Below, in pieces: positions 6,770-37,738 of a DNA stretch of 40,160 nt. The notes under the pieces are model-generated. The model did no database searches and had not been told where the DNA came from. It saw only the letters and a program-made list of their open reading frames with translations. Numbering within the stretch: the first letter of the stretch is position 1; the number at the start of each line of letters is the position of its first letter. The DNA comes from Asterionella formosa (lineage: Eukaryota), in contig NKIB01014858.1 of the NCBI GenBank assembly GCA_002256025.1, positions 1 to 40,160 of the forward strand, written 5' to 3'. The translations under genes and the position numbers were made by a program.

Positions 6770-7054
6770 CGGAGTCTAATCGACCATAACCTGCAAGTGG
6801 CGGTAATTTTGCTAAACTAAAGATTTAGCTATTTTTATCCAAGATTTAATTGTTCATTTAAGCAAAATGACCGCAACTTGTTATTATTTGGTCGATAAGG
6901 GGGTCATCTTCAAACAAGACCAAAGCATATTTGGTCTTGGTCGATGTGTTGGCTAAAATATTTTTGCTTTTTCGACCAACACAACAAATCATGATGTGTA
7001 ATGACCCGCAACTTCAATTGGCTTGATATTTGGTCGATGCGGTGGACATGCTCT
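6770..7054. mobile_element. Probable DNA-transposon end (Tourist/Harbinger-like TIR with subterminal repeats)
   Basis: The terminus reads GAGCATGTCCACCGC on the minus strand, similar to Tourist-type GAGCATCTCCA. Five TGGTCGA/TCGACCA motifs occur at 6780, 6889, 6938, 6972 and 7031. The partner end was not found. Confidence 0.45.
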
Positions 7055-9550
7055 AGATACTAAGTGCAACCAATAATAATCCCTGCACATGTGCCAGACC
7101 AGCTGAAGGATCATGATGTGGTTGCAAATTCTGAGGTATGATACCAGTAGCCTGGTACCTGGTACCGGTACCAGAATATATTCTGCTTGGACTTTCTAGA
7201 AATTCTTGGATGTTACTCAGAGTAGCTGTTTTTCCTTTGGTAAGCAAACTTGAATTAGGAACTGAATCTCTGCTGGTGACCCTACCGTAATACCGGTTCG
7301 CAAAGAAAAGTACTCCCAACCCTAATGTACCACCCCTCTGCTGCTACAAATCATCAAGTACTGGTATCCAACCCTTATACTCCTAGCTAACCCTATATAA
7401 AGTACCATACCGTTGCTGAAGGCAAGAATACACGCCCTTGGTGGTCTCATGCCTGCGAGAACACATGTGTACGAGAAGGCGTGTAGCCACCGAGTAGGGT
7501 ATTGCTGAGGCAATTCACAAACTAGCTATCGTCACGCCATTTGCTTACCTACTGCCCACTCATCGAGTGTAAATGTCAATTTTAGCTCACTATAGTCCAT
7601 CATATAAGATATATTTCGTATATTTCCTATCTTCACATCGAAATTGGCAATGGGTCCGATATTGCCCATAGTTAAAATATATTTTGTGCATTTCCTATCT
7701 TCGCATTTTGGCATTACAATTTGTAGCAATTGCCCCTTGGTTTTCCAGCCCTGGGATTGCCGAAATTGGCAAGGGGTCTACTTAAGGAAGCCATTTTATA
7801 TACTCTGCAGATTTCAATAATTTATATCTAGAATTCACCTCTTTTTTGGTTGTCTCCTGAAAAGTGGTGGACTCTGGCAATTCACCTTTCACCATGCCGA
7901 TTGTCGTCCATCATGACCGGGTTGAAGCGAAATCAGTTCTAGTGATGACACCAGTAGCGATTCATTGTCTAACGGATATGGTTGGTTGTTGGATTGTTTG
8001 TCTTCTCGAGGGATTCATGTAGTCGCATCGTCCATATTTCGTCGGACGAATGATGATATTGATACATCTGATGTTGGCGGCAAGTTTTTGCTCCGGTCAT
8101 GCATGTGAGATGCTTATCGGACATTATACCAGTAGTCATCTAGCCTACATATGTACGTGGTACTTGAAACAACCATGGATGGTTTAAGCTAAACTTTAAC
8201 GCTTACTTTAAGCACATAATAATATTATCTCTGTAGACTCGGTATTATTTTTACGAGACCTGAATGTTAAATTGTATTGTTTACATATTGATTGATTCTA
8301 TGTACTAGCTATATGCCCGATTTCGTCCTCACAATTATAATTCTCGCTCTATCCTGCCTGCCGTTGCTCAATTTGGGCTTGTTGCAAAAGGAACTTTCGA
8401 CTTTCTTATGAGCCCATCGTCTGCTGTGTGTTACGCTTGTTAGAGCGGATCGGTGAGAACAACAGTGAATCACTGAATGTGATCATAGATAGTACTAATT
8501 GTCGAATTTCCGATTTGATTGCTTCCATGGTCCGTTTTGATCACTTCCATCGTTGTTTGTCGTTCCGCACTGTCGTTTTGTTTCGATTGTATCTATCTAC
8601 ATAAGAACCAGTGTATTTATCGAGGACTAGTACTCTTTGATGACATATTGTTGTTGATTGTATTTGTTGATGTGTATAGTCATTTCTTACCATGATGTCA
8701 ATCATATTGCCACCAAGCAATGCTTTTCTTGTACTAACGCGCTTTGCTAAATTTCTAATACGAGTTCGTATCACAAGCTACATAAATACTCAGCTAGAGG
8801 GGATCGATAGTAGTGCTGGAGCAGCTTGGCAATTACACTTGCTCAGAATGGAATGATCAGTGTTGTTTGGTGGGAGGAAGAACGACTGTGTGTGGAGGAA
8901 GCACTGCAAGCAAATTGGGTCAGGCTTTACAATGCAGATTTCAATTGGGTTGAGTTTTTTTCTTATCTGTTTTGTTTTGCTCTTTGATGTTGTGATGGAA
9001 AGTCATTGTTACCTGTGTACTAAGTGCTACAATGCATACGTTTCCATTGAAACTCCTATTTTTTACGTCATTTCTAACCCAAATTTTTTTCTATTTCTCA
9101 TTTGACACTACTCATTACATCGCATTTCATACTTTGGTTGCTCCAAACATCACGTTCAATTTTCATTGATGTTGCATGTTACAATCATTCTCGTGTGTTT
9201 TACGCTCGTTGTTCCCTTTTTATGTATTTTACCGTTATTCTGGTTGTCATGCTAAAAACGGCAATTTAATGCCGAAAAATTCGATATGCCCCATATTGCC
9301 CCTAAAAAAATTTCTTAACAAATTAGTTAGAGCCTAAAAATTACTTAGAATTACCCGAATGGCAAGACGATATGCGTAGCTTGAGCGGGAATTGCTGGCA
9401 AAACTGAAGTAGTCTACCACCCACACCCCTACAAAATATACCAGCGTACGATTGTGGATGCCCAAGCCAAGCAAGTGTTACACCTTTTTTTTTCACCGCT
9501 CTTTTCTTTCATTATGTTTTACTCCACGATTTATGCATGACACTGTGACG

Positions 9551-10588
9551 ATGAAGGCTTCAACGGTGGCAACTCGACCATTTTTGTTATTTTGCTTCGT
9601 CGTCTTACTGCTCCACCCTTTGCATGTGTCGTCTTTTTCCTTTCGATCTGGAGCTGGCCCGGTTCGACGCAGCGACAAGCGAGATCAACCGCGGTTACCG
9701 GTAGCAATGGCAAAAAATCCTGCCGATAAAGAGAAGTTGCAAACTCCCGGTACCAGTACTACCGTCCTCTCGAAATCCTCTCAAAGAGGAATTGTGTGGA
9801 AGGTCGCCTTAGGATCATTATTTTCGGTTTCCCTGGCTGCCAAGGGTGGATTGCTTGGTAGTGACTATCCCGATGCTACAATTTTGCAGGATCTCAAAGC
9901 TGCCTTGCTTTGTGGCGTGTTGGGATTCCTTTATGTAAAACTCGTGTCTTGGTTGGTGAGCAAGGAGGTGCTGCAACCAAAGGTGTCGCGCAAAATCATT
10001 CATATTGGATCCGCACCACTTTTCATGTTATTTTGGCCTCTCTTTTCGCAAAGTGGACGTTTCTTTGCCGCCTGTATCCCCCTCATTACGGCAGTGCGAC
10101 TTTATCTTGCAGCGACCGGAGAAAGGAACGAGTCGGAATTTGCCAATGCAATATCTAGAAGTGGCGATGTCAAGGAAGCATTGGGTGGTCCCTTTCTGTA
10201 TGTCGTTATTTTGATTCTTAGCATCCTCTTGTTTTGGACTGACAACTGCGTTGGTGTTGTTGCCATGTCCACCATGGCAGCTGGTGATGGTATGGCTGAT
10301 ATCATCGGAAGACAACTAGGAAAGAATAATAAATGGTTCTTTGCACCAGACAAGTCAATAGCAGGGTCGGCAGCATTTCTTGTCTCGGGGACAGCGGTTA
10401 CCATTGGCATATTGATATGGCTGTCAACTGCTGGTTGCTTGACACTTCCAATGCCAATACCAGAATTGGCGACACAGGTTGCATTAATCACATCTGCGTG
10501 TGCATTGATAGAGCTACTTCCAATCGGGGACGACAATTGGACTGTTCCGTTGAGTGCTGCTTTATTATCATCCATATTTTTAGTGTAA
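9551..10588 (+). CDS. VTE5: CTP-dependent phytol/farnesol kinase (VTE5/FOLK family), plastid-targeted, 345 aa
   Basis: Motifs SRKIIHIGSAP, SRSGD..EALGGPFLY, GDGMADIIGR, KSIAGS and ELLP.GDDNWTVP. Signal peptide followed by VSS|FSF. The VTE5 versus FOLK paralog assignment is not resolved. Confidence 0.88.
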   Translation: MKASTVATRPFLLFCFVVLLLHPLHVSSFSFRSGAGPVRRSDKRDQPRLPVAMAKNPADKEKLQTPGTSTTVLSKSSQRGIVWKVALGSLFSVSLAAKGGLLGSDYPDATILQDLKAALLCGVLGFLYVKLVSWLVSKEVLQPKVSRKIIHIGSAPLFMLFWPLFSQSGRFFAACIPLITAVRLYLAATGERNESEFANAISRSGDVKEALGGPFLYVVILILSILLFWTDNCVGVVAMSTMAAGDGMADIIGRQLGKNNKWFFAPDKSIAGSAAFLVSGTAVTIGILIWLSTAGCLTLPMPIPELATQVALITSACALIELLPIGDDNWTVPLSAALLSSIFLV

Positions 10589-11047
10589 GAAGCCGCTCTC
10601 AGGTTCAACGAGGCAACCGTTTCCTTTGCTTTCCTTTTCATCGTGCTATTGTGTCTACCGGGCTTTAAAATAGACGATAGTAACATTTTGTTGCGGCAAG
10701 CATTAAACATTAGACGACATTCGCGGCCAATTCGTTTAGGACTACATTTTTGCCAAGAACTCCGAATGAAAATCCCTGCAGATCAGATTCGCCCCTTTCT
10801 CACAACTCTAAAATGGTCACAACTGGACGAACCGTTGCCATGTGCTCAGATTTAAAATAAGAAAGCCCTTCGAGTCAAGACATACACATATATCTGGCAG
10901 AACATTGCTACTCTGAAAGTGGCAAGTATCATAACCATGATGGTGTTTGCAATTATATCAGTCCACGACAGCACGTCTTGATGTTAGGATGTTCACGAAA
11001 CAAGCGAGGCAGTAACCATTGCTGGGGACATGAAGATAGTGGAAAAT

Positions 11048-12601
11048 TCATTGTTCCTCTGTAAGGAAAAGGGTTGGCATCATGTCGATTATCTGTTGGT
11101 AGTCCCTTTGAAAGGCATCTTCGTCATCATTTATCAGCTGAACCCATCCAGCATCCGATCTGATATCGACAGTGGGAGAAATTTCACTCCCCATTTCCAG
11201 AAAACGAGGGTAGATCTCCATATCCAAGAAACTATCCAAACGCTGTATTTCGTTCAGTGCTTCTCCGTTCAGTCCGGACAATTTTCCTGTCGCGTGATTG
11301 ACGAGATGAACCATTGCTGCATGCGCTCGGCTAGAAGGGAGCGTGGGGTAATCTTCCCAAGTAATTTCTTTCACTATTGGGCCATCTCCAAGGTAAGAAT
11401 CCAGCATCATGTCAAGTGAATTGTAGCCTATACACGCCATTGTAAGGGGAGCAAAGTCCATGTTGTGTTGACGACAATTGACTTCTACTAAGCGTGGGCC
11501 ATCACATGTCATGATCACTTCTGTGTGTGTTGTACCCCATTTCAAACCAAGGGAATTGAGTACTTTCATTGCATATTCGCAAATAATATTCCCAATCTCT
11601 GACTCGTTTGCTTCAATTAGCTCGGTACCATGATAGACGAACGACGCTCCATTTACCGGTCGTTTATCATACCTCCACAGTGCAGCAACTTTGTGCTCGC
11701 CGTCTTTTGACACTGTATCCAGAGCATACTCCGTCCCGTACGCAAATTCTTGTACCAAGACAGCGTCGTGTTTTTGACCGGGTGAACCAAAAATAGTATT
11801 GCCATGGATTTGGTGAAAAGCATGCTTCACGCTAGGTAAGTCTCGGCACAATGATACTTGCTCAGATGCCACGCCTCGAATAGGTTTAACGACGCAAAGG
11901 TGAGAGCTCGCAAGTGGAGTGTTGCATCCACTTCCGAGAAGCCCAGTTGCTGTATTGATACTGTTTGAAGTTGATTGCCGCTGTTGTTGTTCACTCTCTG
12001 CCGAATCCGTCAATCCCAATTCAATAGCAAACTCTATGGCCTCCTCGACAGATCTGCAGATTCGTTGGTTAACAACAGCAAGACCAGATTGACTCACAAC
12101 TTGGTTCATGAGATACTTGTTTCGTCTCGCTTCGTTGAAGCCATTCTGTTTCTGTATCTTCAAAAGTTCGGCCATTCGTTCCCCATCGGCTAGCCCCGAA
12201 TCAGACTCGCAAATGATTCCTTCGATAACATCGACATGCAGTGCATCCAACCATCCTTGCAGCTGCTCTTGGGTAGGGATACTCATCGACTTAGGTTCCT
12301 CCATTTCCGGATGAAACTTTTGAAAGTATCCAATCATGTAGTCGGATAGAATGTTGATGCACGCGATTCCATAAACTTCTCGAGCCACTTTCGACATGTA
12401 GCCACCGTGATACGCACTGAACTTGTCCATGAAGACAAGTGCGCGTCTTGGCCCTGGAGCCCATTCATCAGGAATATCCACGTGAGGCACGGGATCGACA
12501 GATCCACCTCGTGGGATAGTCTGCGCTACTTTCGAAAAGAAACAATGGGTTTGCCTTGCTCCGGCAAGCAATGGAACGATCCAGAGTCCTATTGGCTTCA
12601 T
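11048..12601 (-). CDS. ATP-grasp domain protein (L-amino-acid ligase/carboxylate-amine ligase-like), 517 aa
   Basis: Motifs ARRNKYLM, CVVKPIRGVAS, VLVQEFAYGTEYALD and GTTHTEVI..DGPRLVEVNCR. N-terminal hydrophobic leader ending HC|FF followed by PRGG. Confidence 0.85.
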   Translation of the reverse strand: MKPIGLWIVPLLAGARQTHCFFSKVAQTIPRGGSVDPVPHVDIPDEWAPGPRRALVFMDKFSAYHGGYMSKVAREVYGIACINILSDYMIGYFQKFHPEMEEPKSMSIPTQEQLQGWLDALHVDVIEGIICESDSGLADGERMAELLKIQKQNGFNEARRNKYLMNQVVSQSGLAVVNQRICRSVEEAIEFAIELGLTDSAESEQQQRQSTSNSINTATGLLGSGCNTPLASSHLCVVKPIRGVASEQVSLCRDLPSVKHAFHQIHGNTIFGSPGQKHDAVLVQEFAYGTEYALDTVSKDGEHKVAALWRYDKRPVNGASFVYHGTELIEANESEIGNIICEYAMKVLNSLGLKWGTTHTEVIMTCDGPRLVEVNCRQHNMDFAPLTMACIGYNSLDMMLDSYLGDGPIVKEITWEDYPTLPSSRAHAAMVHLVNHATGKLSGLNGEALNEIQRLDSFLDMEIYPRFLEMGSEISPTVDIRSDAGWVQLINDDEDAFQRDYQQIIDMMPTLFLTEEQ

Positions 12602-12799
12602 GCTTCGTCAATTATTTGATTTCATACCACGAAGGAGTACCAGGTACCAGGTTACTGGTACCAGGTACCAACAGTATGTACTGGTATCAAGAATCCACAC
12701 TACCAGGGTACCTGGTGCCATACCGGTATGAATATACGCGGTGTTTCTACCGGTATTGTCATTCATATTTCTTTGTTCATAGCAAATATATAACATATC

Positions 12800-13420
12800 C
12801 TCCCCCCCCCCTCAGATACCACCCTCCAGTTCTGTCTTTACTGCTTTCCTCTAACAATTCTTGATTGGATGGAACCACCTTCTTTGGGGTCATATCCCTC
12901 TATCCTGGGGCCATGCAATGCACATGTACAAATCTCAACAATTCCCAGAGTAAAAGTACTGGTACAATCCCACTGATTGGTCTTGTCAACTCTTCACATT
13001 TCTTCAAACTTACTCAATGGATCAATGGAAATTCTGGAATGACTCCATTCATGGGGCCTCTGTAGCAGCCACCAATACCTGTCAAACCTGCACACTGACC
13101 TCCTTTGTCACTTCAGCTTCCTCACTCAACTCTCTGTCCCAGCAGACAATGGGGTACCTGTTTCATCTCGCCCTATCCACTTGCATTACCCACTCCTCCC
13201 TCTCTGTTTTGGCAACATGGTTGGAGATCCATAAAGCTGGTCAAATTTGCCTAACTTGCCAACTTTGTCAAGATCAATGCCAGCAAGGCTCAATCCACCA
13301 ATATCTGATTAAACGTGCCCTTCCCCATTGTCCCTCCACTCCTGTCTAACCCCTTATAATCTTTGGAGCAACTGAACAAACTCCACACACTACCATAGTC
13401 GAGGTCCATAAAGTGTACTT
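12800..13420 (+). mobile_element. 5'-truncated, decayed non-LTR (LINE) retrotransposon 3' end
   Basis: One frame reads *QFLIGWNHLLWGHIPLSWGH...*...DWSCQLFTFLQTYSMDQWKFWNDSIHG, matching the Q..IGW..(R)G....W / W..RN..HG C-terminal pattern of diatom LINE ORF2. In-frame TAA stops, C-rich composition, strong CpG depletion and an AT-rich tail. Confidence 0.65.
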
Positions 13421-13791
13421 AAAAAATTTATTTAATTATTATATTTGTATTCATCTATTAGTATGTATAAATACAAGGTAAACAACGGTATCTATACGTA
13501 GACGCCAATAACGGGATGGACATGTGTACGGTAGGATACATGATGTAGATACCGGTACATCATGTACTACATATACTATTATATACCAGGTAGTGTAGAG
13601 GAACGAGCGAAAGATTCCTTCATGAAGATCGAAAGAATGGCAGCATCAAGTAATATCGCCTACCGGTAGTCGCATGATCCCTATTATTTCTTTTACAAAA
13701 TACCCCTTCCAACGCTTCGCTTCAACACGAGGATCATTATCTTCTCATCCCTTGATCGACGTAGCTCCATCATTTTTCATTCATCGATGCC

Positions 13792-14557
13792 ATGAGATTC
13801 CTTCGCGCCATCGGTACTGTAATGCTATCGTCTCTTTGCGCCACATCAAGCGCCTTTATTATGCCTCCCTTCAAGAATGAAGCCACGACGTTCTCCACGG
13901 CTCAATTTGCGTTCTGGCGTCACTTTGTACCACGTGACAAACGCATGGGTCTCATTGTCGAGAGCACTGATATATATAGTGGGGAGAAGGCTGTCTTCTC
14001 TCCCTCGATCGTCATGTTGTTGAGCTTCATGTTGGCGTTGCCCTTGGCATGCAACGCTGTAAGTGGCGGAGGTCTTGACTACGCAAATATTGATATCACT
14101 GGGCAAGATTTTAGTCATCAAAACTACAAAGGAAAGGATTTTACGCAGGTGATTGCCAAGGGCACAAATTTCGCTGGGTCGAACTTGCAAGGATGTCGAT
14201 TTTACAAGGCTTTCTTGGTGCGTTTCTACGCTGCGACTGCCGAGGCGAATACATTTGCATTTTGAAATTTGTCACTAACACCATTTCTACCAGGTAAACA
14301 CTGACTTTACTGGTGCTGATTTGAGAGGGGCATCGTTGGAAGATACGAGCATGGATGGAGCTTCCTTGAAGGATGCAAATGCTGCCGGGGCTTATTTCAG
14401 CGCTTCGTTGTTAGATGCCAAGTCGCTGGAGAATGGAGACTTTACTGATGCAGCTTTGCCAGTGAAAACGCAGATTTTGGTTTGTGGACGCGACGATGTC
14501 AAGGGAACCAACCCAGTGACTGGTGTCGATACAAGAGATTCCCTCATGTGTCCATAA
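13792..14557 (+). CDS. Thylakoid-lumen pentapeptide-repeat protein (TL17-like), 2 exons (13792-14217, 14294-14557), 229 aa
   Basis: A(D/N)LXX repeats continue across intron 14218-14293 (GTGCGT..CTAAC..CCAG). C-terminus C...GTNPVTGVDTRDSLMCP. SSA|FIMP plastid motif plus a second hydrophobic segment ending ACNA. Confidence 0.9.
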
Positions 14558-15049
14558 TCACTCGTTCAATTATGCGTGTCCACTGTCTTTTGGCTGATGC
14601 TAATGCCAATTCTAATGCTATCGCGCCCAACTATATTGTCATCACCATTTCATGAACACCCTTTCACCGACATGCAAGCACTCAGCGATAAGAGACAAGG
14701 GTAACTACGAGTTTTAACCGACTTGACCTTTGTCGCCGAAGCATGTTATGATAAGATCACTTGTCGCTTTATACATGCCAGAATCGCTATTGACCTATAG
14801 AAAATAACTATTACACTTCCTCCCTCTCGAACAATTCCTTGATTTGTTCAGTCATTATCTTTAGAATTCATTTGAAAATTCAAGTGAGAGTTGCCAGGTC
14901 TATCTGCAATTCATAGGCTTCTACTCAAGAGCCAAATCGTAAATATGGTTGAAACTGTAATGCGGCAATCGGTTGTTATATTGTTTTACTGGTAGCAGAT
15001 GGGGATGAGAAGTATGGAAAAATTATACTATAGATCAGGAACTTCTTCC

Positions 15050-18000
15050 TCAATCATCTTCATATTCGTCATCGTCAAACCCGAGCTCGTCCTCAACGTC
15101 CTCATCGTCAAGGTCTCCAAAGCCGTTACGTTGGTTTGCTTGCTCGCTTTTTACTTGTTCTTCGTATTCATCAATAACTCCTTCGATGCCTGCTCCGAAG
15201 CCAGAATCAACGAATTCATTCAAGTTTTCTGGATTCACCACTCCTACTTTCATCAGAAACATCATAGCGTTATCGACCTTTTGTATCAACGCCTTTAGTT
15301 CGTCCCTTGTAAAATCTTTGCTGCCAACAAGTTCACAACGGAAGAATTCAAGTTTCTTTGAGAATTCACTCTTTAGGTCACCACTCATACTGCCCTCGCT
15401 TGTGTACCCTTGCAACTCCTTGAAGCAAATATCAATTTGTTCGTACAATCCTGGGCCGTATTTTTCCTCATGTTCTGCGGCAAGCATAGGGAACCCTGAA
15501 TTCCGCAGGCGATACGGAGTATCTCGAAAGCCATTATCATACCAAAGATCTTTTACATATTCGTAATTGTAATACTCTCTCCACTTCTCCTTGGGGTCGT
15601 CAGTCTTGAAAAATGGTCCATCAGCTTGCAACTTTGCCATTGCTTCTTCTGGTAGGGGAACCATTTGATAGATGTCAGGGTGCCCATATCGAATCAAAAA
15701 CTGCAACTCTGGTGTCAAATCTGCTTCATCTGGATCGAGGGGGAGAGCAAGAGTGGGGAACCAGACGAAATCAAGGGCGCGTAAAAGAATAACCTTCTCA
15801 GGGTGGTAGGCGTCCAAAAAGTTTTGGAGTTCTCTAATTCTCTTGACAGATTTACCAATTTCATAACCAGCCAATGCTTCCGGCCATGGATCCTCATCAG
15901 GCATTACAAAGTCATCATTGACAAACAAATCGCCTCTGACAAGGTAGTATGCATAAAAGGCACACATTGCCTTCTCGAAGGGAATCTCCAAAAAGTACCT
16001 TGCATCACCCCAATCAAATCCAATCTTATCGAGCATTTTCTTTCTTTCGGGAATGTGTTTAACTTCTAAGCTTCCGTCACGAATGCGTTTAACAATACCA
16101 CCAAGAGGCATTCCGCTCAAGTGCTCAGGCCAGACACTTGTTCCTACAGTCATGGGTTTGGCCATGGTAGCCACCGCGACGCGATTCTGCACTGCGACCT
16201 GAGATTGAACCTCTTGCTGAAGGCGCTGGATTTCGAAAGCAATCAAGTCTTCGCTATCACTAAGACTTCCTGCTTCCTCAAAAGCAGCGATTGCGGCAGC
16301 TGCTCTTGCAGAGGCTTCGCTGTCAAACAATGACGAATCCTCTTCACCGAACAAGCTCGTCTCAGGAGCTGGAACCATAAAGTCACTACCTTGAACAGTT
16401 AAGTTAGAGAAATCCCCGTACATTTCTTTATAGACGGTCAGTGCTTCAACAACATCCTCAAAAACAAAGTTATCGCCAAAATCATCATTGAACCAGGGAA
16501 CGTCTTTCTTCTGTTTCCCCTTCTTCATTAGGCTAATATCATCACTGTATGAAAAAGAAAAAGAGGGGAACGTTAGAAATGATTTGTGCAGTGAAGCGGA
16601 AAATGACACCAATATCAAAAAAGCGCCTCACCCTGTATCCAAAATAATACCAACGGAAATTGCACGCGAGCGAGCTATTGCGAGAGATTCTTCCAGGGTT
16701 TGGGGAGGTACATATTCTACCTCTGTTGGGGGAGGTACTTCAGTAGGAGTTGTTCTTGATAAGGACGCCATAGATTCTCCAACAATGCCCCATGACGGCG
16801 TGCCGTTGTCATTCTTGAATGGATCATTGGACCCGAAATCAAATGAGGGGCCAAAAATATTCTCCATGGCCGATTCGGTAGTCTCCCAATCATATTCATT
16901 GTCATCCTCCATTGCAAAAGAGTCAGCAGCGGGCATGTTGGCCGTTTGCTCCGCATCAGCGGCCTCTTCTGCATTTGTTTTGCGGCCTCGTTTTCCTGCC
17001 CGATCCGAGGGAGGTGGGCTCCAAATAAAGCCAATGGAGTCTAGATCTTGTCGTCGCTCTGGGTTTGTATTTACAAACGTCCCTTGGCTTCGGATAGCGT
17101 TAACTCTAGCGCCAAGGCGCAGTCCCCAAGTCCTCTCTGGCCATTCCGGTGAATCCTCTGGAACGAAAAATGGTTGAGGCACAAGCAAGTCTCCGAAAAT
17201 TTCTTTATAACGCTTGAGTGCATCAAATACAATATCGAATCGAGAGTCGCTAGTAGCAGACTTTGTTTCCAGCTCCAGACCAAGATTGATTAACTTTTGT
17301 TCCGCCCCGGGATTCGCCTTGAGAAAAGATTTGGATCGCATTGAAACAATCGTTTTTCCAAGAGGGAGTCCTCGTGTTGACTGTGGCCATGGATCACAAT
17401 CTGGGACAATAAAGTTTGGAGGAATATGGAGCGTACTTCCAGTTGGGTGCTCCTTCCGATAGGTAAGGAGCGCTTCATAAATTTGGTCAAAGGTAACTCC
17501 GTCCATTTCCTCCTCCGCTGAGGCCGTTGTCCGGAGCCTCCACAAAAAGCCCAATCCATCTAGTAACTTTCTTCGTTTTTCATTATTTTGAATATGTTTC
17601 CCCGTGGCTCGTATGGCCGATACCTTGATGCCAAGTTTCATGCCCCAAGCTTTCTCTGTTTTTGGCAGTTACAACACATCCGTGGTGGCGTGAGTTAGTT
17701 AGTTACGGTGTCCGAGCAAGCGTGACTGTGCCAGCTCCTACAGGTAGAACGAACAAACACACACACACACACGTACCTGGCCATGGAGGCAAGGATGGTA
17801 CGATGAATCGGGAGGGTACTTTCAAGTCCCCATAGGCAGCCTTGTACATTTGAAAGGCTGCCACTAAGGCTTTCCACTCGTCGTCGTCCGCTTGCGCTTC
17901 GTTATTGTTCGTGGCTAGCAGTCTGAGAGTCCGTTGATGCGATACGGAGAATATGGAGGGCGGCCTCAGCAAGGAACCCATCAGGTCCACGCCTCGTGAC

Positions 18001-18095
18001 GCCGAGCCTGGCTGATGCAAGGAAAAGGCCGCAGCACAAGTGGCAGCGCAAACTGCTGCTGATGTAAACATTCCCACCGTACACCGAAAGCTCAT
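15050..18095 (-). CDS. Helicase-associated (HA)-like repeat protein without a helicase domain, probably plastid-targeted, 3 exons (18095-17777, 17655-16632, 16544-15050), about 945 aa
   Basis: Five repeats of type AL..YK..YGDL.VP..F.VP...WP....G..LG..V..IR......R...LD.IGF.W. Introns 17776-17656 (GTACGT..CAG) and 16631-16545 (GTGAGG..CAG) join the three ORFs in frame. Signal + AAA|FSL and an acidic C-terminus. Alternative start at 18071. Confidence 0.82.
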
Positions 18096-18742
18096 GCTTG
18101 TAGTCACATGCTCATGTCGCCTCGGAGGTATTCTCGTGTTCCTCTGTGTTTGTTGCCGTGTGTGCTCCATCATTGGGGTCAAGTCGGATTCCGGAAAATA
18201 CCGGTGGATGATACCGGTAATCAATTCAGTGGATGATGTCAATATTTAAAAGGGTTATCAGCCGGCAAAGGATACGGGCGCGTGCGTATCAAGGAGGGTT
18301 AAAATTGAGGCGCCAATGGGAGGGTCAAGCAATCCAAGAATTCGTGAGCTGCTCTACCGAGTTTTTGGATCGGGCTCTGCTGACATGGAGTGTTCAAGGA
18401 GCAACTGGAAGGACCAAAAGGCGGTGCCTTCAACAATCTGATGGAATTATGGTACCGTTAGTACCAGGAACGAAGCAAATGCGATGCGCGCCACGTTCTT
18501 TTCCTTTGGCTTTTTTCCAGACCGCCACAGCATTACTGTCGTCGCAGCCATCATCAGCATCAGTCCGAGGAAGGTCGATAAAAGGTTGTTCTATTGAGCA
18601 AAGTAAGCTAAATATCTCTACCGGACCTTCCAGCATGACAGTCATAGCGTCGGTACCGGAAACCTTGTATGTACATGCTGAAATGTGATTATATATTTTT
18701 AACCATGCTTGGAAATATATAAATATTCTCATCATGTTCATT

Positions 18743-19108
18743 TACGGTACCTGGTACCTGGTACCAGGTACTGTATGCACAGGGTATAGCGTTGAATTGA
18801 CTGGACCAGTACAATTTATTGCGATGACGACTGGGCGGAGCGAATAACAGCTGCTTGATGGGTCCCTGTCCGCCGACCGTTTGTCATACTGGACACCGTA
18901 CGAGTTCATATGTAGGTGCACACAGTTATGCGCTGGTACCTGGTACCGTACCAGTTTGATGTACCAGCATGCGTTTGGTGCTCCTGCTTCGGTACATACC
19001 GGTACCAGGTACCAGGTACTATCTGGTACCGTACCAGTCCTTTCCTTGCATACTGCCGGGTACATAGGAGTGTACGTGTTACCGGTACCAGGTAAAATAA
19101 GTACCAGG
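18743..19108. repeat. Dense array of TA-bounded CCGG/CCWGG/CGG/CTG units
   Basis: For example, 18743-18775 parses as TA-CGG-TA-CCTGG-TA-CCTGG-TA-CCAGG-TA-CTG-TA. Similar concatemers occur at about 18935-19035 and 19080-19108. Confidence 0.9.
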
Positions 19109-19377
19109 TTCTATGATACTAGCAGGCAGTAGGTATCATGGATCTTCGATTTTCGAAATCCATCGTCATGGTCATGGTGCAGCCATGCGTTGGGACGTTT
19201 TTGCCTCGACTACGAGATTTTATGATCTGCACAGTGGTTCCCAAATTCAAAAGGTTACGCACACAAGTATCATTTGCTTACACAGTACCGGTATTATTAC
19301 TATTCTAAATATAACTATAGACTGGCTTGACCCAATTCTTACAACATAGTAAAGAGGGAACTGTTCTATCTACCGGT

Positions 19378-20250
19378 ATGCCCACGACCACGGAATTTAG
19401 CAGCCAAGGCTTTGATCTTGACGTACTTCCATCAGAAGGAGGTCATGATGATGTGATATTGGAGCTTGGTGGGGGCGTAACAAGGTCGGAAACGAAAACA
19501 GAACAAGCGTCCAGCATTAGCAACTCTGATGAGGTTGAATCACCCATTGCCGTGTCGGAAGGCTTCAAAACACAAGGAAATGAACAATTTAAACTGGGAG
19601 CGTACCTAGAAGCCTACGATATGTACACGGAAGCCATAGATGCTTGTCCTGGAATGACAGGAGCACACATTTTGACTAGCAAAGACGAATATGAAGAGAA
19701 ACGTCATCTAGAAGCTGTCAATCGACACCGTCTGATGGAGGAACAGCGGCTTAAGATGAAAGAAAAAGGCGAAAAGGGAGAACCAGAGCATCCTCCACCC
19801 CCACCACCGTTTCAACCTCCACCACATGAATTTGGCCACCAGTTGGCTGTCTATCATTGCAATCGCGCGGCGTGCTTGCTGCATTTGGCCAAGTACGATG
19901 AAGCCATTAAGGACTGTACTGTAGCAGTTCTACTCAATCCGAATTATACAAAGGCATGGATGCGACGATCAAATGCTTACGAAGCGACGGAGCGAACTGA
20001 AGATGCATTGGAGGACGCCAAGAAGGCACTGGACTCAGATCCTGCGAATTACAAGATACGACAAGACGTAGCAAGGCTTCAAAAGATGGAAGACGCACGG
20101 CTCGAAAAATTAAAGGAAGAAACCCTGGGCAAACTGAAGGAGTTGGGAAATTCTATTCTCGGAAATTTTGGGATGAGTCTGGACAACTTCAACGCTGTCA
20201 AAGACCCGAATACCGGATCCTACAGTCTTTCATTCAATTCTGCCAAATAG
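19378..20250 (+). CDS. TTC1: Tetratricopeptide repeat protein 1 homolog, 290 aa
   Basis: TPR motifs KTQGNEQFKLG.Y.EA...YTEAI, NRAACLL and NPNYTKAWMRRS. Characteristic C-terminus LKELGNSILGNFGMSLDNF...KDPNTGSYSLSF. Confidence 0.88.
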   Translation: MPTTTEFSSQGFDLDVLPSEGGHDDVILELGGGVTRSETKTEQASSISNSDEVESPIAVSEGFKTQGNEQFKLGAYLEAYDMYTEAIDACPGMTGAHILTSKDEYEEKRHLEAVNRHRLMEEQRLKMKEKGEKGEPEHPPPPPPFQPPPHEFGHQLAVYHCNRAACLLHLAKYDEAIKDCTVAVLLNPNYTKAWMRRSNAYEATERTEDALEDAKKALDSDPANYKIRQDVARLQKMEDARLEKLKEETLGKLKELGNSILGNFGMSLDNFNAVKDPNTGSYSLSFNSAK

Positions 20251-20316
20251 TTTCAATTGGACTGCTTTTTATCATCTAAATGTAGACAACTCAACTCGTA
20301 AATGGTAGGGTGTGGC

Positions 20317-22485
20317 TTATTTCTCATTAACGACATTCGCGGTCCATTCTGGTGCAAAGTTTTCTTGTCTCCAAACAACTGGCCTTTTAGATAACTTTTC
20401 CGCATTGGATTCTCCAACTAGATCAACAAGAACACTTCTGGATACCCCTTCCTCTAGCTTTTGAGTCACGTAAAAATGAACGCAACCTTCCTTACAAGCC
20501 ATCTCAAACACCTCCCGAAGCTTCTCGTCTCGTTTCGTCCCAGCTGGGAGATGTTGATTGTAAACCTCCATGATAAGCACAAAAACAGAGTAGTGAGGCG
20601 GCGCTTCGTGACACATCTCCTCGGCAATACTCAACGCCGTATTTGCATCATCATCGTACAAACAAGCTCTCAGCACCGCCGTGTAGCATTTGGTATTGGG
20701 CTTGGCTACTCGTCTCAGAATTCGTTTGGCATTGACAGCCCGGTCTTGCAAATTGGGATTATTTGGATTTGCCCAAGCCAAAATTGTGGCCACGTACTCA
20801 TAGCACTTATAGTGAGGGTAATGCGTCATGCGGTCCAAGATGGCTTCGCAGCGTTGAGGTGCATCTGGGAGGCTAGATTTACCAATAGCTCGAATGGCTC
20901 TGCTGAACCAATTGGACATTGCTCCTGGTTTTACATTATGGTTGTCGCCTTCGAACAAGCGTTCCATTCTTTCCACTGTGACTTCTATGTATGACACAGC
21001 TTCGTTGTGATTAGGGTGGTGGCACCATGACTGTAGCAATCCACCATTTGTGTAAAGATCGGGAGCTCCTTCAATGGCACCCTTTTCACACTCCATTTCA
21101 AGTCGAAGAGTAAGGGAGGTTGCAAGTGGAGCCGGAGCCAAAGGACCAAAATCTTCACCGTCGACCTCCATCCGTGCTTGGCCAAGAGCACTTAATACCA
21201 AGTTATAATTGTTCACCGTTTGCCAAATATTTTGTCCATTTCTGCGTCGTTCCTCCATCTCGTATAGAACCTGTAATGCCTTCAAGGCTGGATGTTGTTC
21301 ATTCTGGGGATGATACAAATCATTTGTACTGACTGCACTCAAAGCATGTAACACTGTACTAAATGACTTCGAATCAATGGAACCGACCTGTGAATCCATT
21401 TTGACCATGATCTCATGCGCATTATCAGCACCCTCTAGAGTCTCGATGGTGGACCAAGCTGTTAGTACGGCCTTATAACAATGCAAACTAGGAGGAATCG
21501 TCTTGCCGTATGCATGACGTGTCTCCATGTGCAATAACAACCGATCTGCACCTTGAGCAGTCGTCAAGCCGAGATATGCGAGATGATCTCGGTCGACTTT
21601 GCTAGTTTTCCTGGCAGCCTTAATAGCAATTGCTGCTCTTGCATACCCACTCAAGACGGCAGTGTAAGCAAGCGATCGATCGGGCACCATATGCTTGGAG
21701 ACGACATCTTGACGATCCTCCAACGATCTCAGCCAACGCTCTGCTTCGGTAGCGCTTCTCATCAAAACTCCAATGGCTCCAATGTCCAAGTTATTGGTCT
21801 CATAGATTGCAATATTTGGCGTATAAAGTTGAATAACAATCTGATACAAGCTCTTCAGAGCCTTGTTGTCGGCGTTCAATCCATGGGAATCAATCATCTC
21901 GAGAAGCATCTGCAGCACTTTCCCCGCCTGTTCGGCAGCCGCATATCCCGTCATCTGCTGCAACCGGAAGATGACTCTCGAGTATGCTGCAAAGGTAGGT
22001 TGGATACACAAGGTGGGGCTCTCTATCCATGCTTGGTGCCAATCTCTTAGAATATCAATCGCAGTGTCCAAATGTCCCGACAGCATGAGACTCTGTTCTA
22101 TTTTCCCTTCAAATTCCCCATCACCCAGCCTTATTTTTGAGAAGACAAATTCCTTTCGTGCAGTAGCCACTGTCGATTTGTTACTGTCATCAGTTCGTGC
22201 TCTATTGGCCCCGGAACTGAGAAGGTTGGTTTCAGCAGTGTCGTCTGCTGTTTTATTCGTATCCCAATTTAAATCCTCCCAGAATTGGTTCATCTCAGCT
22301 CGGCTCAGATGGATCCCTCCCATTTTGCGTTTGGAATCAACAGCGCCGGCTATTATTGCTAATGATTTTGTGGATGAGTGCAAGCCACAACATCGTTGTT
22401 GATGCAAAATTGTCCGTAGTCGCTGAATATTAATTGATACTGGCTTGTGCCGCAGTCCTGACGCCATCAATGACGTTAATGACAT
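20317..22485 (-). CDS. Pentatricopeptide-repeat-like helical repeat protein, probably mitochondrial, about 722 aa
   Basis: Degenerate PPR motifs AYTAVLSGYA, CYKAVLTAWS, NYNLVLSALG and PNTKCYTAVLRAC. Diatom-type tail VFEMACKEGCV...PEWTANV. Arg-rich N-terminus. The start codon is uncertain. Confidence 0.8.
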   Translation of the reverse strand: MSLTSLMASGLRHKPVSINIQRLRTILHQQRCCGLHSSTKSLAIIAGAVDSKRKMGGIHLSRAEMNQFWEDLNWDTNKTADDTAETNLLSSGANRARTDDSNKSTVATARKEFVFSKIRLGDGEFEGKIEQSLMLSGHLDTAIDILRDWHQAWIESPTLCIQPTFAAYSRVIFRLQQMTGYAAAEQAGKVLQMLLEMIDSHGLNADNKALKSLYQIVIQLYTPNIAIYETNNLDIGAIGVLMRSATEAERWLRSLEDRQDVVSKHMVPDRSLAYTAVLSGYARAAIAIKAARKTSKVDRDHLAYLGLTTAQGADRLLLHMETRHAYGKTIPPSLHCYKAVLTAWSTIETLEGADNAHEIMVKMDSQVGSIDSKSFSTVLHALSAVSTNDLYHPQNEQHPALKALQVLYEMEERRRNGQNIWQTVNNYNLVLSALGQARMEVDGEDFGPLAPAPLATSLTLRLEMECEKGAIEGAPDLYTNGGLLQSWCHHPNHNEAVSYIEVTVERMERLFEGDNHNVKPGAMSNWFSRAIRAIGKSSLPDAPQRCEAILDRMTHYPHYKCYEYVATILAWANPNNPNLQDRAVNAKRILRRVAKPNTKCYTAVLRACLYDDDANTALSIAEEMCHEAPPHYSVFVLIMEVYNQHLPAGTKRDEKLREVFEMACKEGCVHFYVTQKLEEGVSRSVLVDLVGESNAEKLSKRPVVWRQENFAPEWTANVVNEK

Positions 22486-22801
22486 GATAATGAATGAATG
22501 AAATGGATAATAGCAAACCGTAGAGGAGACAAAGTCAGTTGGTTTGTAAGGTAATGAGTAAATGAGCTTTTTCATACGACACTGCAAAAGTCGACATGAA
22601 TTTGTGCGGTCGGCACTTGATTCATCCGATTCCAGAATTCCGCCATCATCACACAGCAGACGACGACCCAAGAAATCCAGCAATTCGATAACTCACCGGA
22701 CCGGTACCAGGTACTCTCAAGATCAACATCATAAAAGCCTTTTCTCAACCCCTTCTCCCAATCATTTGAAACTGAAGACACTAAACATACTCGCCGCTAT
22801 C

Positions 22802-23638
22802 ATGTCTGACTCTCACAAGAGCCATAGTACCTTGTCAAAGGATGCACTGTACGCTCCTTTAGCAGCATATGAACAAGACAAGGTCTCTGCCTCGCACTAT
22901 TTAATACACAAGAAACGTGTCCCTGAAAACATCAAGGAGTCGTCCATGGTTGAATTTCTGGTACAAGTAAGCCAACATGTCAACCGGAACCGATTGTTAA
23001 CTACTGGCAAGAATAACGGTAGTAAGGCTCTTTCTCAATCTGACGTTGACACGAGAATTAGACAACGAGGATTGACTCTGATTGGTGGTGGCATCAATAA
23101 GGAATGGGGACACGGCAAGCGAGCAAACACAAACAAATCAACCATACCATCCAATCGCAAGAGAAAGAGAACTTTATTAGTAGCAGCAACGAATAACAAA
23201 ACCTCATTTCCTTTTGATCCTGTCACTGGCCATCATTTTTCTCTACTCAACAACTTGTGGAACGATTATTTCCTCCTGCTCTTGCCAACCATTACTGACA
23301 TGATGTGGTGTGACCCCACTACAATATCGTCCCTCAGTGTGCGACTTGCCCCAATAATGGATCGCGTGGAACTTGTTGGAGCACATGTCACGATTGTATC
23401 TTGTAACAGTCAAAAAGGAGTGACAGGCACGTCGGGATATGTTGCGAAAGTGACAGCAAACACATGGACAATTGTAAAATTAGCAACCTCGAAAGGAACG
23501 CATGATAAAGTTCTAGTCGTTCCGAAGAAAGGCTCCATTATATCCTTGCGAGTTACTCTGGCGAATGCGAAGGAGGAAGGGACTGCCGAAGCGTCAACTG
23601 CGCCCAGTGTCCTGTGCATTGCGGTACACGGAAAATGA
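22802..23638 (+). CDS. POP4: RNase P/MRP subunit p29 (POP4/Rpp29) homolog, 278 aa
   Basis: LNNLWNDYF precedes the Sm-like domain ELVGAHVTIVSC....GTSGYV...TANTWTIV....VVPKKGSI. Basic NLS RKRKR. Confidence 0.78.
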   Translation: MSDSHKSHSTLSKDALYAPLAAYEQDKVSASHYLIHKKRVPENIKESSMVEFLVQVSQHVNRNRLLTTGKNNGSKALSQSDVDTRIRQRGLTLIGGGINKEWGHGKRANTNKSTIPSNRKRKRTLLVAATNNKTSFPFDPVTGHHFSLLNNLWNDYFLLLLPTITDMMWCDPTTISSLSVRLAPIMDRVELVGAHVTIVSCNSQKGVTGTSGYVAKVTANTWTIVKLATSKGTHDKVLVVPKKGSIISLRVTLANAKEEGTAEASTAPSVLCIAVHGK

Positions 23639-23744
23639 AGAAACTGACTTATTTTGCAACATTGAAGTCCAGTCTAGATGGTAACGCGAATGAGTTTTGT
23701 AGTTTTAATGAATATCTTTTTATTGCTTTACTGCGCGTCCCGTC

Positions 23745-24059
23745 TCAATACTGATGACCAGATTCCGCCTTCTTGGCACCGAGCTCGAAATGCTTGGTAC
23801 GCTTGAGACAAAGCTGCTTCTTCGTCTTACATTTCTTGCATTCAAGACGAAGAACAATCTTACGAGTTGTCTTAGCCTTTTTGTGGAAGACGGGCTTTGT
23901 TTGACCTCCAAAACCCATTTGCTTGGAGTCGTAACGTCTCTTTCCCTGAGCAAAGTTCGATGCCTTACCAGCCTTGTACTGGGTCACCTTGTGGACCTGG
24001 TGCTTCTTGCAGTTTGATCCTGCACAGTAGGTGCTGCGCTCTTTTGGGACGTTGACCAT
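23745..24059 (-). CDS. RPL44: 60S ribosomal protein eL42 (L44/L36a), 104 aa
   Basis: MVNVPK..TYC....[51 protein letters not shown]. Confidence 0.98.
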
Positions 24060-24078
24060 TGTAGAATTTTATTTTCAA

Positions 24079-24336
24079 CTGTGCGGCATTGAGATAAAGA
24101 GAAAGACACTGTGAGCAAGCGGATCGAACTGAAATGCTGTGTCAACTATCTAATGTTCAAAAAGTCTGACCGCCCCAAAATGACACCATGATGCCAAGCA
24201 GGATTGCGTCCCTCGCGCCGTCGTCAGATACTGTTGCTGCATCATCCTCTATATCACATCTGTACTCAGGGAATAATGGGCGTCATTGGCCAGGCTATCT
24301 CATCATGCTAATTCAACTTCACTTCACTTCACTCAC
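24079..24336 (-). other. Predicted 5'-UTR intron of RPL44 (258 nt)
   Basis: Donor GTGAGT at 24336-24331, branch-like CTCAC at 24115-24111, pyrimidine tract and CAG acceptor at 24081-24079, 19 nt before the ATG. Confidence 0.65.
24222..24308 (-). ncRNA. Candidate intronic box C/D snoRNA
   Basis: Box C ATGATGA (24306-24300), D' CTGA (24269-24266), C'-like ATGATGC and box D CTGA (24227-24224). The C-to-D span is 83 nt, inside a ribosomal-protein intron. The terminal stem is weak and no target is confirmed. Confidence 0.42.
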
Positions 24337-24370
24337 ATCAACAACAACAAGACTTGAGCAACAACGAAAT

Positions 24371-24381
24371 CAGAGAGAGAG
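24371..24381 (-). promoter_or_regulatory. Polypyrimidine (TCT/TOP-like) putative transcription start of RPL44
   Basis: CTCTCTCTCT on the minus strand about 35-45 nt upstream of the predicted donor. Such tracts are typical of ribosomal-protein gene starts. Confidence 0.4.
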
Positions 24382-24877
24382 TCGGTGTTGCAGGCAAAGT
24401 AAGCGGTAACAAGAGGTAAGTTGGATCGACGTCTGTCCTCCATCCCCAACTACTTTTCAGGACGGTGAGCGAGACAGCAATGCATCATCATCATGTGATT
24501 CTTGTTCTACTTCCGGCAACTACGGGTACTGGCACATGTGAACGCCTACAATTATTCCCTCGTTTCCGATTCCCCTCAAGGGGCTATATACCGTTACATG
24601 CAAAGAAAAAGAAGCATTCTGATGATCTATGTGCGTATCGTCGTCTCATCTCACCCCGTATGTAGAAATCCTCATCATTTGGAGCATTATGTAATTATAT
24701 GCAGCGTGTGATGCAACAATACCGTCTAGGGGACATACTGTACCAGGTAGCGGTGCCAGGTACCGGTACCGGTATATCTACAGGATGAATAGCTTCATGT
24801 TGTCCCACAATGACGGCATGTCTACCGCTTGCTGAGTTTGACTCCAAGTTCCATCTCCTGTTCATCAGCTAATTACC

Positions 24878-26194
24878 ATGCAAGCTTCAGCCAAGTCAAC
24901 GTTAAGCTCTCTAGTGGAAGAGCACTTGAGCTTGTTGATTCGCGAAGCAATCTCTGTTCAGCGACACGCGAAACGTGCTCGCTTCCACCAAACCACAGAA
25001 CATGATGGTGTCCTCCGCAAGCGCTTACATGCCGAAGATATCAATCTAGCGCTGCAGTGGAGAGGAAGCGAGAAGCTATACGCTACTGGTACAGTGGTAC
25101 CAACAGTAGAAGGCTCAACTAAGAAGGTGGATTTGAATGCCTACATCAAGTCAGAAATGCAACTCAGGGCCCCAAGCGAAGTGGCTCTGACTATGCACTG
25201 GTTGGCGGTAGATGGAAATCAACCGGATATTCCACAAAATCCATCTCAAGTGAATTCTATTGTTCACCGTATTACAGACGATGACGATGATCTTGAGGGG
25301 GTTCGCGTCAGACAACTCTTGCCGAGACTGCTGTCCGAAGAACTGCAGTTGTACTTTACTCACATTACCATGGCAGTCGAGCAGGGAGGGGCGACTCCCG
25401 ACGATCGGCGGTCGCAAGATTCTGTGCTGGACAAGGTGGCCCAAGATACTGGCTTACAGGAATTGGTCCCATTTTTTGTTAGTTATCTCTGTAAACAGTT
25501 GTACAGCTCACTTGGGAATCCCGACCATTGTCGTATCTTGATTCGATTGACGAGATCGCTCTTGCTCAATCCACATTTACACCTAGAACTTCATTTGCAC
25601 CAATTGTTCCCGGCATTGATGACATGCGTTGTGGCGAAGAAATTGGCGAATCACCGGACGGATAACCACTGGGCGTTACGCCAAGAAGCAGCATCAACCT
25701 TGTTGCAAGCATGTAATCTGTAAGTATTGCAAGCAAGGAACATTTGAATTTTAAACATTGTGTACACCCATTAATCATATTTCTTATGCTATTTCAGTTT
25801 TGGTGAAGAGTATGCATCCCTTAAGGCTCGCGTCTTGAAGGCGCTTTGTGAAGCAACTGCGCCTGAAAAGGCATTAACCACGTGCTTTGGCGGTCTTGTT
25901 GCCATTACTCTATTTGGAATTAAGGCAGTGGATGCGTTTCTTTTGCCTCTTGCTATTCCATATATTCAGCAATGGGACAAGGCACTAGAATCTTCCGACA
26001 CGGACTTGAATGAATGTATTGAGATTGAACGGTGTCAGTGGGCGCTATTGAATGGCTTGACCTTATTCCTAAGCAAAGCTGATATTGGCGTGCAAGCAGA
26101 ACGGTTCGACTACGAGCCGTTGGAAGAGGCATTCGGGGAAAGATTAGTACCACTTCGTAGTGAACCAGATGAGTACGCGATATGCTTCATATAA
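24878..26194 (+). CDS. TAF6: TFIID subunit 6, 2 exons (24878-25719, 25798-26194), 412 aa
   Basis: Histone-fold segment LIREA...RHAKR...L.AEDINLAL, then HWLAVDGNQPDIPQNP, LSEELQLYF and LLLNPHLHLELHLHQLFPALMTCVVAKKL..HWALRQEAA. Intron 25720-25797 (GTAAGT..TTTCAG) restores the frame. Confidence 0.93.
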
Positions 26195-28599: not shown

Positions 28600-28717
28600 T
28601 GGTGAGGAGTGTGTGAGTCGAACCCAACAAGCAATTCCTTCTCAAAAAATTGCGGGAATTGAACCACACAACTTCAAATCAATGGCAACATGCCCAACCA
28701 ACTGAGCCATTACCCTA
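28600..28717 (-). pseudogene. Degenerate tRNA-like relics (one A/B-box unit plus a 3' tRNA fragment ending CCA)
   Basis: A-box TGGCTCAGTTGG (28710-28699) and B-box GGTTCAATTCC (28665-28655) at tRNA spacing, followed by T6. A second fragment GGGTTCGACTCACAC-ACTCCTC-A-CCA lies at 28625-28600. No intact cloverleaf. Confidence 0.5.
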
Positions 28718-37736: not shown

Positions 37737-37738
37737 AG

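Follow-up and report, generated by a model that had tools for sequence, protein, structure and literature searches.

The DNA analysed here is contig NKIB01014858.1 of Asterionella formosa (assembly GCA_002256025.1), taken over positions 1 to 40,160 of the forward strand and called the window below. It is intron-poor eukaryotic (diatom) nuclear DNA, and it carries many copies of a short palindromic unit bounded by TA, with the octamer TACCGGTA as its most frequent form. The densest local cluster of these units is found at 18743-19108, in a 1.2-kb spacer between two divergent genes. The left flank is a gene with a helicase-associated (HA) domain (Pfam PF03457) at 15050..18173 on the minus strand. 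The right flank is a TPR-repeat gene (Pfam TPR_1/TPR_2) at 19378..20250 on the plus strand.

The leftmost array of this spacer, array D (18743..18775), is a 33-nt near-perfect palindrome that reads TA-CGG-TA-CCTGG-TA-CCTGG-TA-CCAGG-TA-CTG-TA, a parse already given in the initial annotation and correct on the sequence. It contains a tandem repeat at 18746-18771, with 3.7 copies of GGTACCT at a period of 7, in which the central W varies (T, T, A). As single-stranded DNA, the region 18740-18778 is predicted to fold into a hairpin of 15 pairs (-13 kcal/mol, z = -6.2). Next, array E (18933..18954) reads CTGGTACCTGGTACCGTACCAG and includes a tandem repeat at 18933-18947. Array F (18997..19038) is composed of TACCGGTACCAGGTACCAGGTAC, a 4-nt gap and then CTGGTACCGTACCAG, and at 19080..19109 the unit TACCGGTACCAGGTA is followed by the partial unit GTACCAGGT. 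Solitary copies of TACCGGTA stand at both ends of the spacer. One is found at 18212..18219, 39 bp upstream of the first ATG of the HA-domain gene (18173, minus strand), and two are found before the TPR gene, at 19286..19293 (92 bp 5' of its ATG) and at 19371..19378, where the final A is the A of the ATG. No strand is assigned to any of these arrays or octamers. Two open reading frames (ORFs) near the arrays were set aside. The one at 18233-18688 (+), of 151 aa, has a single database relative (82% identity over 63%) and no Pfam family, and was not counted as a gene; the one at 18745-19110 (-) is an artefact of the arrays.

In the whole window TACCGGTA occurs 22 times. The mean over 100 dinucleotide-preserving shuffles is 0.22, with a maximum of 3, and none of the shuffles reaches 22; base composition gives an expectation of 0.56. 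The related word TACCWGGTA, with a CCWGG core in the place of CCGG, occurs 15 times where about 0.3 are expected. This corresponds to an enrichment of around 40-100x for the octamer and around 50x for the nonamer. Together these 37 copies are termed exact units, and they reach a density of about 1 per kb. Units with a CCATGG core between TAs are absent from the window. The 22 octamer positions in the initial annotation, counted by hand, are all exact, and the excess over chance that it claimed is confirmed by the shuffling.

We surveyed all words composed of TA, a core of 1-6 nt and TA, with thresholds of at least 4 copies and a 4x enrichment. The words that pass are TACCGGTA, TACCAGGTA (10 copies, 0.16 expected), TACCTGGTA (5 copies, 0.16 expected), TACTGGTA (7 copies), TACCAGTA (5 copies) and TAAAAGTA (5 copies), the last being outside the motif family. 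In a k-mer survey, all strongly enriched 6- to 8-mers belong to one word family (GGTACC, TACCGGT, GTACCAGG and similar). The shorter words behave differently: TACCGTA is weak (6 copies against 2.65 expected), and neither TACGGTA (2 against 2.6) nor TACAGTA (1 against 3.4) is enriched. From the set of cores proposed in the initial annotation, CCGG and CCWGG are enriched; CCG/CGG and CAG are at or near background. The exception is TACTGTA, with 12 copies on the plus strand against 3.6 expected and its reverse complement, TACAGTA, found just once. Copies of TACTGTA at 4016, 18769, 24736, 31496 and 32984 lie beside arrays or just 5' of start codons.

The boundaries of the unit are sharp. Bases directly outside the 22 octamers are near-random (left A8 G6 C5 T3, right the mirror image), so the conserved unit is exactly 8 bp and TA-bounded. 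Variants of TACCGGTA with one mismatch are at background, with 0-3 copies each, except for TACTGGTA (7) and TACCAGTA (5), the two words that arise when the central CpG undergoes a transition. CpG observed/expected in the window is 0.79, and the value for TpG/CpA is around 1.22.

In terms of arrangement, approximately half of the 22 octamers are solitary, with unrelated flanks. Within arrays the TACCWGGTA form predominates and adjacent units share a TA, with chains of 2-5 units that read (GGTACCW)n or (GGTACC)n. The arrays, like every one of the 37 exact units, can be parsed as TA-core-TA, that is, as a core between duplicated TAs, as in an excision footprint. Tandem Repeats Finder reports six short arrays with a unit of 6-7 nt and 2.1-5.5 head-to-tail copies, as expected of a slippage repeat, at 7151-7172, 12637-12670, 18746-18771, 18933-18947, 18997-19019 and 24740-24774. 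Hairpin potential is strong in the arrays (z = -6.2 and -4.6).

The position of the units relative to genes was assessed with 16 gene models, based on ORFs, Pfam matches and one RNA-supported intron. Gene spans make up 51% of the window and contain just 2 of its 37 exact units. One of these two is in the gene at 9458-10588, where a presequence is encoded, and the other extends across an inferred intron-exon border. For the 35 non-genic units, 22 are at most 300 bp upstream of an annotated ATG, where such positions represent 4426 of 19530 (23%) of the non-genic positions (binomial p = 4e-7). Because units within one array are not independent, we also counted by cluster, with 15 of 23 clusters in the same range (p = 1.6e-5). 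At the level of genes, 11 of the 16 have at least one exact unit in the 300 bp upstream of the ATG. The units are thus over-represented upstream of genes in comparison with other DNA, as is typical of a promoter motif. The gene-poor, lower-GC non-coding DNA (around 4200-9400, 27700-30400 and 36000-40160) holds just 6 of the 37.

RNA contigs start 31-32 nt 3' of a unit at two genes (13699 and 24806), though contigs cannot define transcript ends. A further contig, from run X12, begins at 19376, inside the unit that overlaps the TPR ATG, which is a weak hint only. At two other genes RNA contigs cross units (one reaching to 18506, one over 12025-13353), which places the octamer at 18212 and the arrays at 12637-12755 in transcribed leaders. 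The use of contig ends as transcription starts was considered and dropped as too unreliable, giving a weak hint at most.

Over 11000-25500 (14.5 kb) we compared the window with contigs assembled from DNA (three runs) and from poly(A) RNA (one run), and seven indels were listed. One of the seven concerns a complete unit. In run X5 (contig over 12802-18335) the letters TACCGG are inserted behind 14249 at a depth of 37.1/37.1, and they are absent in run X2 (0/393.7) and in the window. At 14249..14252 the window reads GAA-TAC-ATT where X5 reads GAA-TACCGGTAC-ATT, a full octamer at an otherwise lone TA. This site lies in the inferred intron 14218-14293. The initial annotation had proposed that strain indels should take the form of a core plus TA at a lone TA, and this one case is as predicted, with its direction unpolarised: with three unrooted states (the window, X2 and X5), gain and loss are indistinguishable. 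The outcome would also be identical had 6 bp been deleted between two copies of TAC, which offer 3 bp of microhomology. In either direction, a whole-unit indel between strains indicates that copies turn over through something besides point mutation. Of 77 base differences, 40 were listed, and all of these lie outside the units.

Two array-rich bins have a depth of 4-20x the neighbouring baseline in all four runs, with joints that have short sides. Many contigs match the arrays only and then diverge, with a loose-end agreement of 0.37-0.6, and the loose ends listed are all at array borders. These depths and diverging contigs suggest many array-bearing places, to which other organisms of the metagenome, including bacteria with the same heptamer arrays, may contribute. 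Since other organisms may contribute, the excess depth was not counted as proof that arrays are dispersed through the diatom genome. Joints between arrays (e.g. 18771->18997) were likewise rejected as local deletions, since their sides of around 20 letters are cross-matches from other places.

For other diatoms, a metagenome scan using an alignment of relatives of the ATP-grasp protein (11048-12601 in the window) provided 49 loci, approximately 250 kb in total, with an ATP-grasp ortholog at no more than 61% protein identity. TACCGGTA occurs 3 times in these 49 loci, where 3.3 are expected, and the motif is upstream of the ATP-grasp gene in 0 of the 49. A per-locus 8-mer enrichment in the 16 loci of at least 6 kb found no other enriched palindrome, TA-bounded ones included. 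This lack of enrichment in around 250 kb of other diatoms indicates that the feature is lineage-specific and not general to diatoms. One locus of another diatom (L001, 7408 bp) has three TACCWGGTA (4482, 7097 and 7253; around 0.03 expected each), zero TACCGGTA and 14 copies of TCTCCTAA; it may represent a related lineage with a variant of the word.

A 20-letter array pattern gave no match in viral contigs. In bacterial genome contigs it matched at least 110 loci, against around 4 by chance, as exact (GGTACCW)n of 3-6 or more units. Several such loci were found per single metagenome-assembled genome (MAG), in Acidimicrobiia, Gemmatimonadaceae, Planctomycetota and a Chitinophaga MAG, and they often abut other heptamer arrays (CTGATAC, GGGTTTC, GGTCCCT). 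They are plain direct heptamer arrays in bacterial DNA and not diatom contamination, and therefore add no diatom loci. Their presence in many bacteria indicates that slippage alone can make such arrays, with no need for a TA-targeting transposon.

The octamer itself has a precedent in oomycetes, another stramenopile lineage. In promoters of Phytophthora infestans, TACCGGTA is motif M94, a high-confidence predicted binding site listed beside M93 (TACATGTA), a palindrome with 4150 occurrences in these promoters (PMC3597505). In Plasmopara halstedii, ATACCGGTAT is motif streme-5, found upstream of 206 genes and equated by its authors with GTACCGGTA of an earlier Phytophthora study (PMC10031896). 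M94 and streme-5 have the identical octamer, which is palindromic and over-represented upstream of genes. A literature search for the octamer together with diatoms found no diatom report, and a search on the genome-wide build-up of excision footprints returned no work that describes scars as words enriched in promoters; in both, most matches were not examined in depth.

Considering these results, we favour the reading that the units are a lineage-amplified palindromic promoter element for a putative dimeric DNA-binding protein, and we give it a probability of about 0.5. The preference rests on the promoter bias, the avoidance of coding and of gene-poor DNA, the identity with the oomycete motif, the lack of a mobile element in the 40 kb and the uniformity of the units when set against documented scars. 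Binding by a protein, a role in promoters and an origin of the arrays by slippage are inferences. In this view a dimeric protein with sequence specificity would recognise TACC and GGTA as half-sites, separated by a spacer of 0 or 1 base, and would mark or open promoters. The role of the unit would be a general one, in promoters or in regulation, comparable to that of the oomycete octamer, for which protein binding is predicted. Local slippage of the 6-7-bp unit would have produced the arrays as homotypic clusters of sites. Copies would decay chiefly through CpG transitions to TACTGGTA or TACCAGTA, and whole 6-bp units may be gained or lost between flanking TA(C) repeats.

Several points weigh against a promoter element. 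The octamer is not enriched in the loci of other diatoms, so conservation at orthologous promoters, on which the case for a binding site usually leans, is not seen in these relatives; with a protein identity of 61% or less, they are distant ones. The units have unusually sharp boundaries and weak variants are nearly absent, which is atypical of sites that evolve by point mutation. A dimer cannot fill all the overlapping sites of an array simultaneously at a period of 6-7 bp. The one strain polymorphism is a whole-unit 6-bp indel located in an intron and not in a promoter, and suggests that some mutational process creates or deletes units in one piece. The units have no fixed place relative to the RNA contig ends, as some are in leaders (18212, 12637-12755) and others around 30-40 bp 5' of contig starts (13661, 24767). 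Finally, the binding protein remains hypothetical, in the diatom as in oomycetes.

The initial annotation read the arrays as stacked transposon excision footprints. A part of this stands, as units do come and go as whole TA-bounded pieces, in the one case of the indel at 14249; the transposon part is not shown, with no element, terminal inverted repeat or transposase found in the window. In its developed form, a Tc1/mariner-type element with a TA target duplication and CC(A)...(T)GG ends would prefer open promoter DNA, each excision would leave TA, 2-3 bases per end and TA, and repeated events together with slippage would stack the arrays. We consider this unlikely, though several observations speak for it. 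Tc1/mariner excision does leave the short 3' overhangs of the element ends between duplicated TAs, and in the case of Sleeping Beauty and mariner the cut is three bases inside the element, the footprint being these overhangs (PMC7827188). In the window, every unit is TA-bounded with near-random outer flanks, weak variants are nearly absent, and excision is the only known process that inserts TA-core-TA. Among the seven indels over 14.5 kb, the one strain difference of this kind corresponds precisely to TA(C) <-> TACCGGTA(C) at a lone intronic TA, with the reservation that it is equally well a microhomology (TAC..TAC) deletion. The counts of cores (CCGG 22, CCWGG 15, CCATGG 0) fit ends that keep 2 bases (probability around 0.8) or 3, a model that expects 1.5 CCATGG, and lineage specificity fits a burst of one element family. 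Against this, no TA-targeting element with matching ends was found within the 40 kb, where inverted repeats involving the motif are the arrays themselves only, and neither transposase nor reverse-transcriptase domains were found in the 64 ORFs (17 long and 47 short). Since a donor element was sought in the window and not found, the units are not demonstrated members of the class of excision footprints. Natural excision scars in rice are heterogeneous, with a simple pattern in 8 of 94 excisions, and mariner insertions there outnumber excisions by 2.6-2.8:1, in families with thousands of copies (PMC4423477). The 37 uniform units with 0 resident copies seen here are unlike that situation (PMC4423477). 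Stacking would also demand an extreme re-use of the same few bases, and the position of 15 of 23 clusters, within 300 bp 5' of an ATG, is explained only if strong targeting is assumed in addition. The abundance of TACTGGTA and TACCAGTA is accounted for by CpG decay, which makes a second element unneeded, and the 12 TACTGTA against 1 TACAGTA on the plus strand are not predicted by symmetric scars. A broader version holds that scars of Tc1-like elements continuously write palindromic promoter DNA, at around one unit per kb and with efficient excision, and that the oomycete "binding sites" TACATGTA and TACCGGTA could share this origin. The companion motif TACATGTA can be written as TA + CA + TG + TA, the scar that Tc1-like elements ending in CA...TG would be expected to leave. 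We regard this broader version as improbable.

Slippage enters a different explanation, in which the unit is a functionless, neutral and self-propagating repeat. Here a 6-7-bp palindrome would spread and contract in the nucleosome-poor DNA of promoters, through slippage, through repair associated with hairpins and through joining at microhomologies. The six short tandem arrays with a period of 6-7, their strong hairpin potential (z = -6.2 and -4.6), the plain (GGTACCW)n arrays at 110 or more bacterial loci and the whole-unit indel between strains are all in agreement with it, and the CpG-decayed copies suggest a weak constraint on some units. However, slippage cannot seed lone octamers at new sites, and around half of the 22 TACCGGTA are solitary with unrelated flanks. 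The background level of non-CpG one-mismatch variants is also left unexplained, as is the over-representation of the octamer in oomycete promoters (PMC3597505), and we find this explanation doubtful. Much further down in probability, a methyltransferase or a repair bias could keep the octamer frequent, as proposed for the iterated palindrome HIP1 (GCGATCGC) in cyanobacteria. CCGG and CCWGG are classic target words of cytosine-5 methyltransferases, so that both cores are palindromes of this type, and the sole abundant variants of the octamer are products of CpG transition. HIP1 is likewise a very frequent 8-bp palindrome and is linked to orphan methyltransferases (PMC4390886). Methylation predicts neither the invariant TA flanks nor the promoter bias, and the units avoid coding DNA (2 of 37 in gene spans). 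HIP1, by comparison, is frequent inside genes and spread through coding DNA. Lastly, the region 18747-19019 could be one miniature inverted-repeat element, now a relic, with GGTACCW units as its terminal repeats. Its arms (18747-18765 and 19001-19019) are 19 nt long, 100% complementary and 235 nt apart; this complementarity is trivial, because both arms are arrays of a palindromic unit. The 235-nt interior is unique in the window, contigs from other array-bearing loci lose their similarity as soon as they enter it (agreement 0.37-0.6), and the left arm has no directly flanking TA. We rejected this candidate on account of its unrepeated interior and of the array-bearing contigs that diverge within it, and its probability is close to nil.

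In comparison with known systems, the promoter element that we favour is closest to the oomycete motif. At the base next to the octamer, the diatom copies share with it a slight preference for A/T (8 of 22 per side). The oomycete motif was found by expression clustering and belongs to stage-specific gene sets, and the accessible text of those reports (PMC3597505, PMC10031896) describes no arrays, +1-spaced form or whole-unit indels. In the diatom, by contrast, the unit stands before 11 of the 16 genes, which are unrelated and of a housekeeping type, and it is also chained into arrays with a 6-7-bp period. Tc1/mariner footprints (e.g. the canonical one of Sleeping Beauty) likewise place a short core between TAs, palindromic or with a central A/T ambiguity, and the strain indel adds a core plus TA. 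The diatom units differ in being uniform, extremely dense at around 1 per kb, promoter-biased and with no donor element found in the window; their cores have 4-5 nt, where those of Sleeping Beauty and mariner have 3 nt (PMC7827188).

HIP1 is also an 8-bp palindrome, over-represented tens-fold in one lineage and with a methyltransferase-like core. It is bacterial, whereas coding DNA is largely free of the diatom units, which also form chains. Heptanucleotide arrays of the microsatellite type share the period of 6-7 and the 2-5.5 copies, and the identical unit is present in direct bacterial arrays; unlike in plain arrays of this kind, around half of the diatom units are solitary with unrelated flanks, and the central W varies. 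Sites of general regulatory factors of the Reb1 and Abf1 type in yeast, and promoter palindromes in apicomplexans, are short words upstream of many unrelated genes, near the nucleosome-free region. These are an analogy only for how the diatom unit might work.

The over-represented palindromic promoter word is already known as a kind, and the sequence of the octamer is listed for oomycetes. What is new is its occurrence in a diatom, before most genes and not before a stage-specific set, together with the +1-spaced form, the overlapping 6-7-bp arrays and the whole-unit strain indel. Diatom promoters are poorly understood, and an octamer before most genes would offer a handle on how promoters are marked, and a practical element for expression constructs. 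If the turnover were due to transposon excision, it would represent a new route from mobile DNA to regulatory sequence, and the palindromic motifs of oomycete pathogens would merit re-examination. Should the word be no more than a protein-binding site whose arrays grew by slippage, it is an ordinary promoter motif specific to one lineage, if an unusually clean one.

Elsewhere in the window, arrays and two solitary octamers are found at 12637..12755, 37-147 bp upstream of the ATG of the ATP-grasp gene (12601, minus strand). Upstream of the TAF6 gene, 111-137 bp from its ATG, the array at 24736..24776 combines TACCAGGTA with a pair of TACCGGTA that overlap. Three solitary units (13550, 13584 and 13661; together 13550..13668) are upstream of the ATG at 13792 of a pentapeptide-repeat gene, and at 22705..22713 a TACCAGGTA in the context CCGGTACCAGGTAC lies between two divergent genes. 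The array TACCAGTAGCCTGGTACCTGGTACCGGTACCAG (7142..7172) is in gene-poor DNA. As above, no strand is assigned to these sites. The sole octamer within coding sequence, at 9696-9703, falls in the presequence-like N-terminus (MKAST...HVSSFSF) of a membrane protein gene (9458-10588) that has no Pfam family.

The pentapeptide-repeat gene (13792-14554) has an inferred intron of 76 nt at 14218-14293 (GTGCGT...CACTAAC...CTACCAG), based on the reading frames and on Pentapeptide-repeat matches on both sides; the RNA contigs gave no confirmation of it. A TACCAGGTA at 14288 straddles its 3' splice site, and run X2 has one base missing at 14236, inside the intron. In the HA-domain gene, the RNA contig joint 16544->16632 defines an intron of 87 nt at 16545-16631, with CT..AC ends that correspond to GT..AG on the minus strand. 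At 17693, where two further ORF pieces of this gene lie to either side, runs X5 and X7 lack 4 bases.

Pfam domains in the window include MatE, TAF6, LETM1, RNase P p29, ribosomal L44, Fpg and helicase-associated (HA), among others, and scans with Rfam and for tRNAs returned nothing. The ATP-grasp protein has named relatives in the diatoms Seminavis, Cylindrotheca, Nitzschia and Chaetoceros, at around 46-51% identity, and unnamed metagenome relatives at up to 72-74%. DNA near-identical to the window is present in 20 of the 24 public runs listed, from 13 studies, with labels such as freshwater, lake water and algae metagenomes. A run of around 12 C is found at 12803-12814, upstream of the ATP-grasp gene, where the RNA contig of run X12 has two extra C. 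Finally, a degenerate tandem repeat with a unit of around 90 bp has 2.5 copies at 37194-37416 (80% matches), with similar copies on to 37927, and the TACCGGTA at 37334 sits within it.

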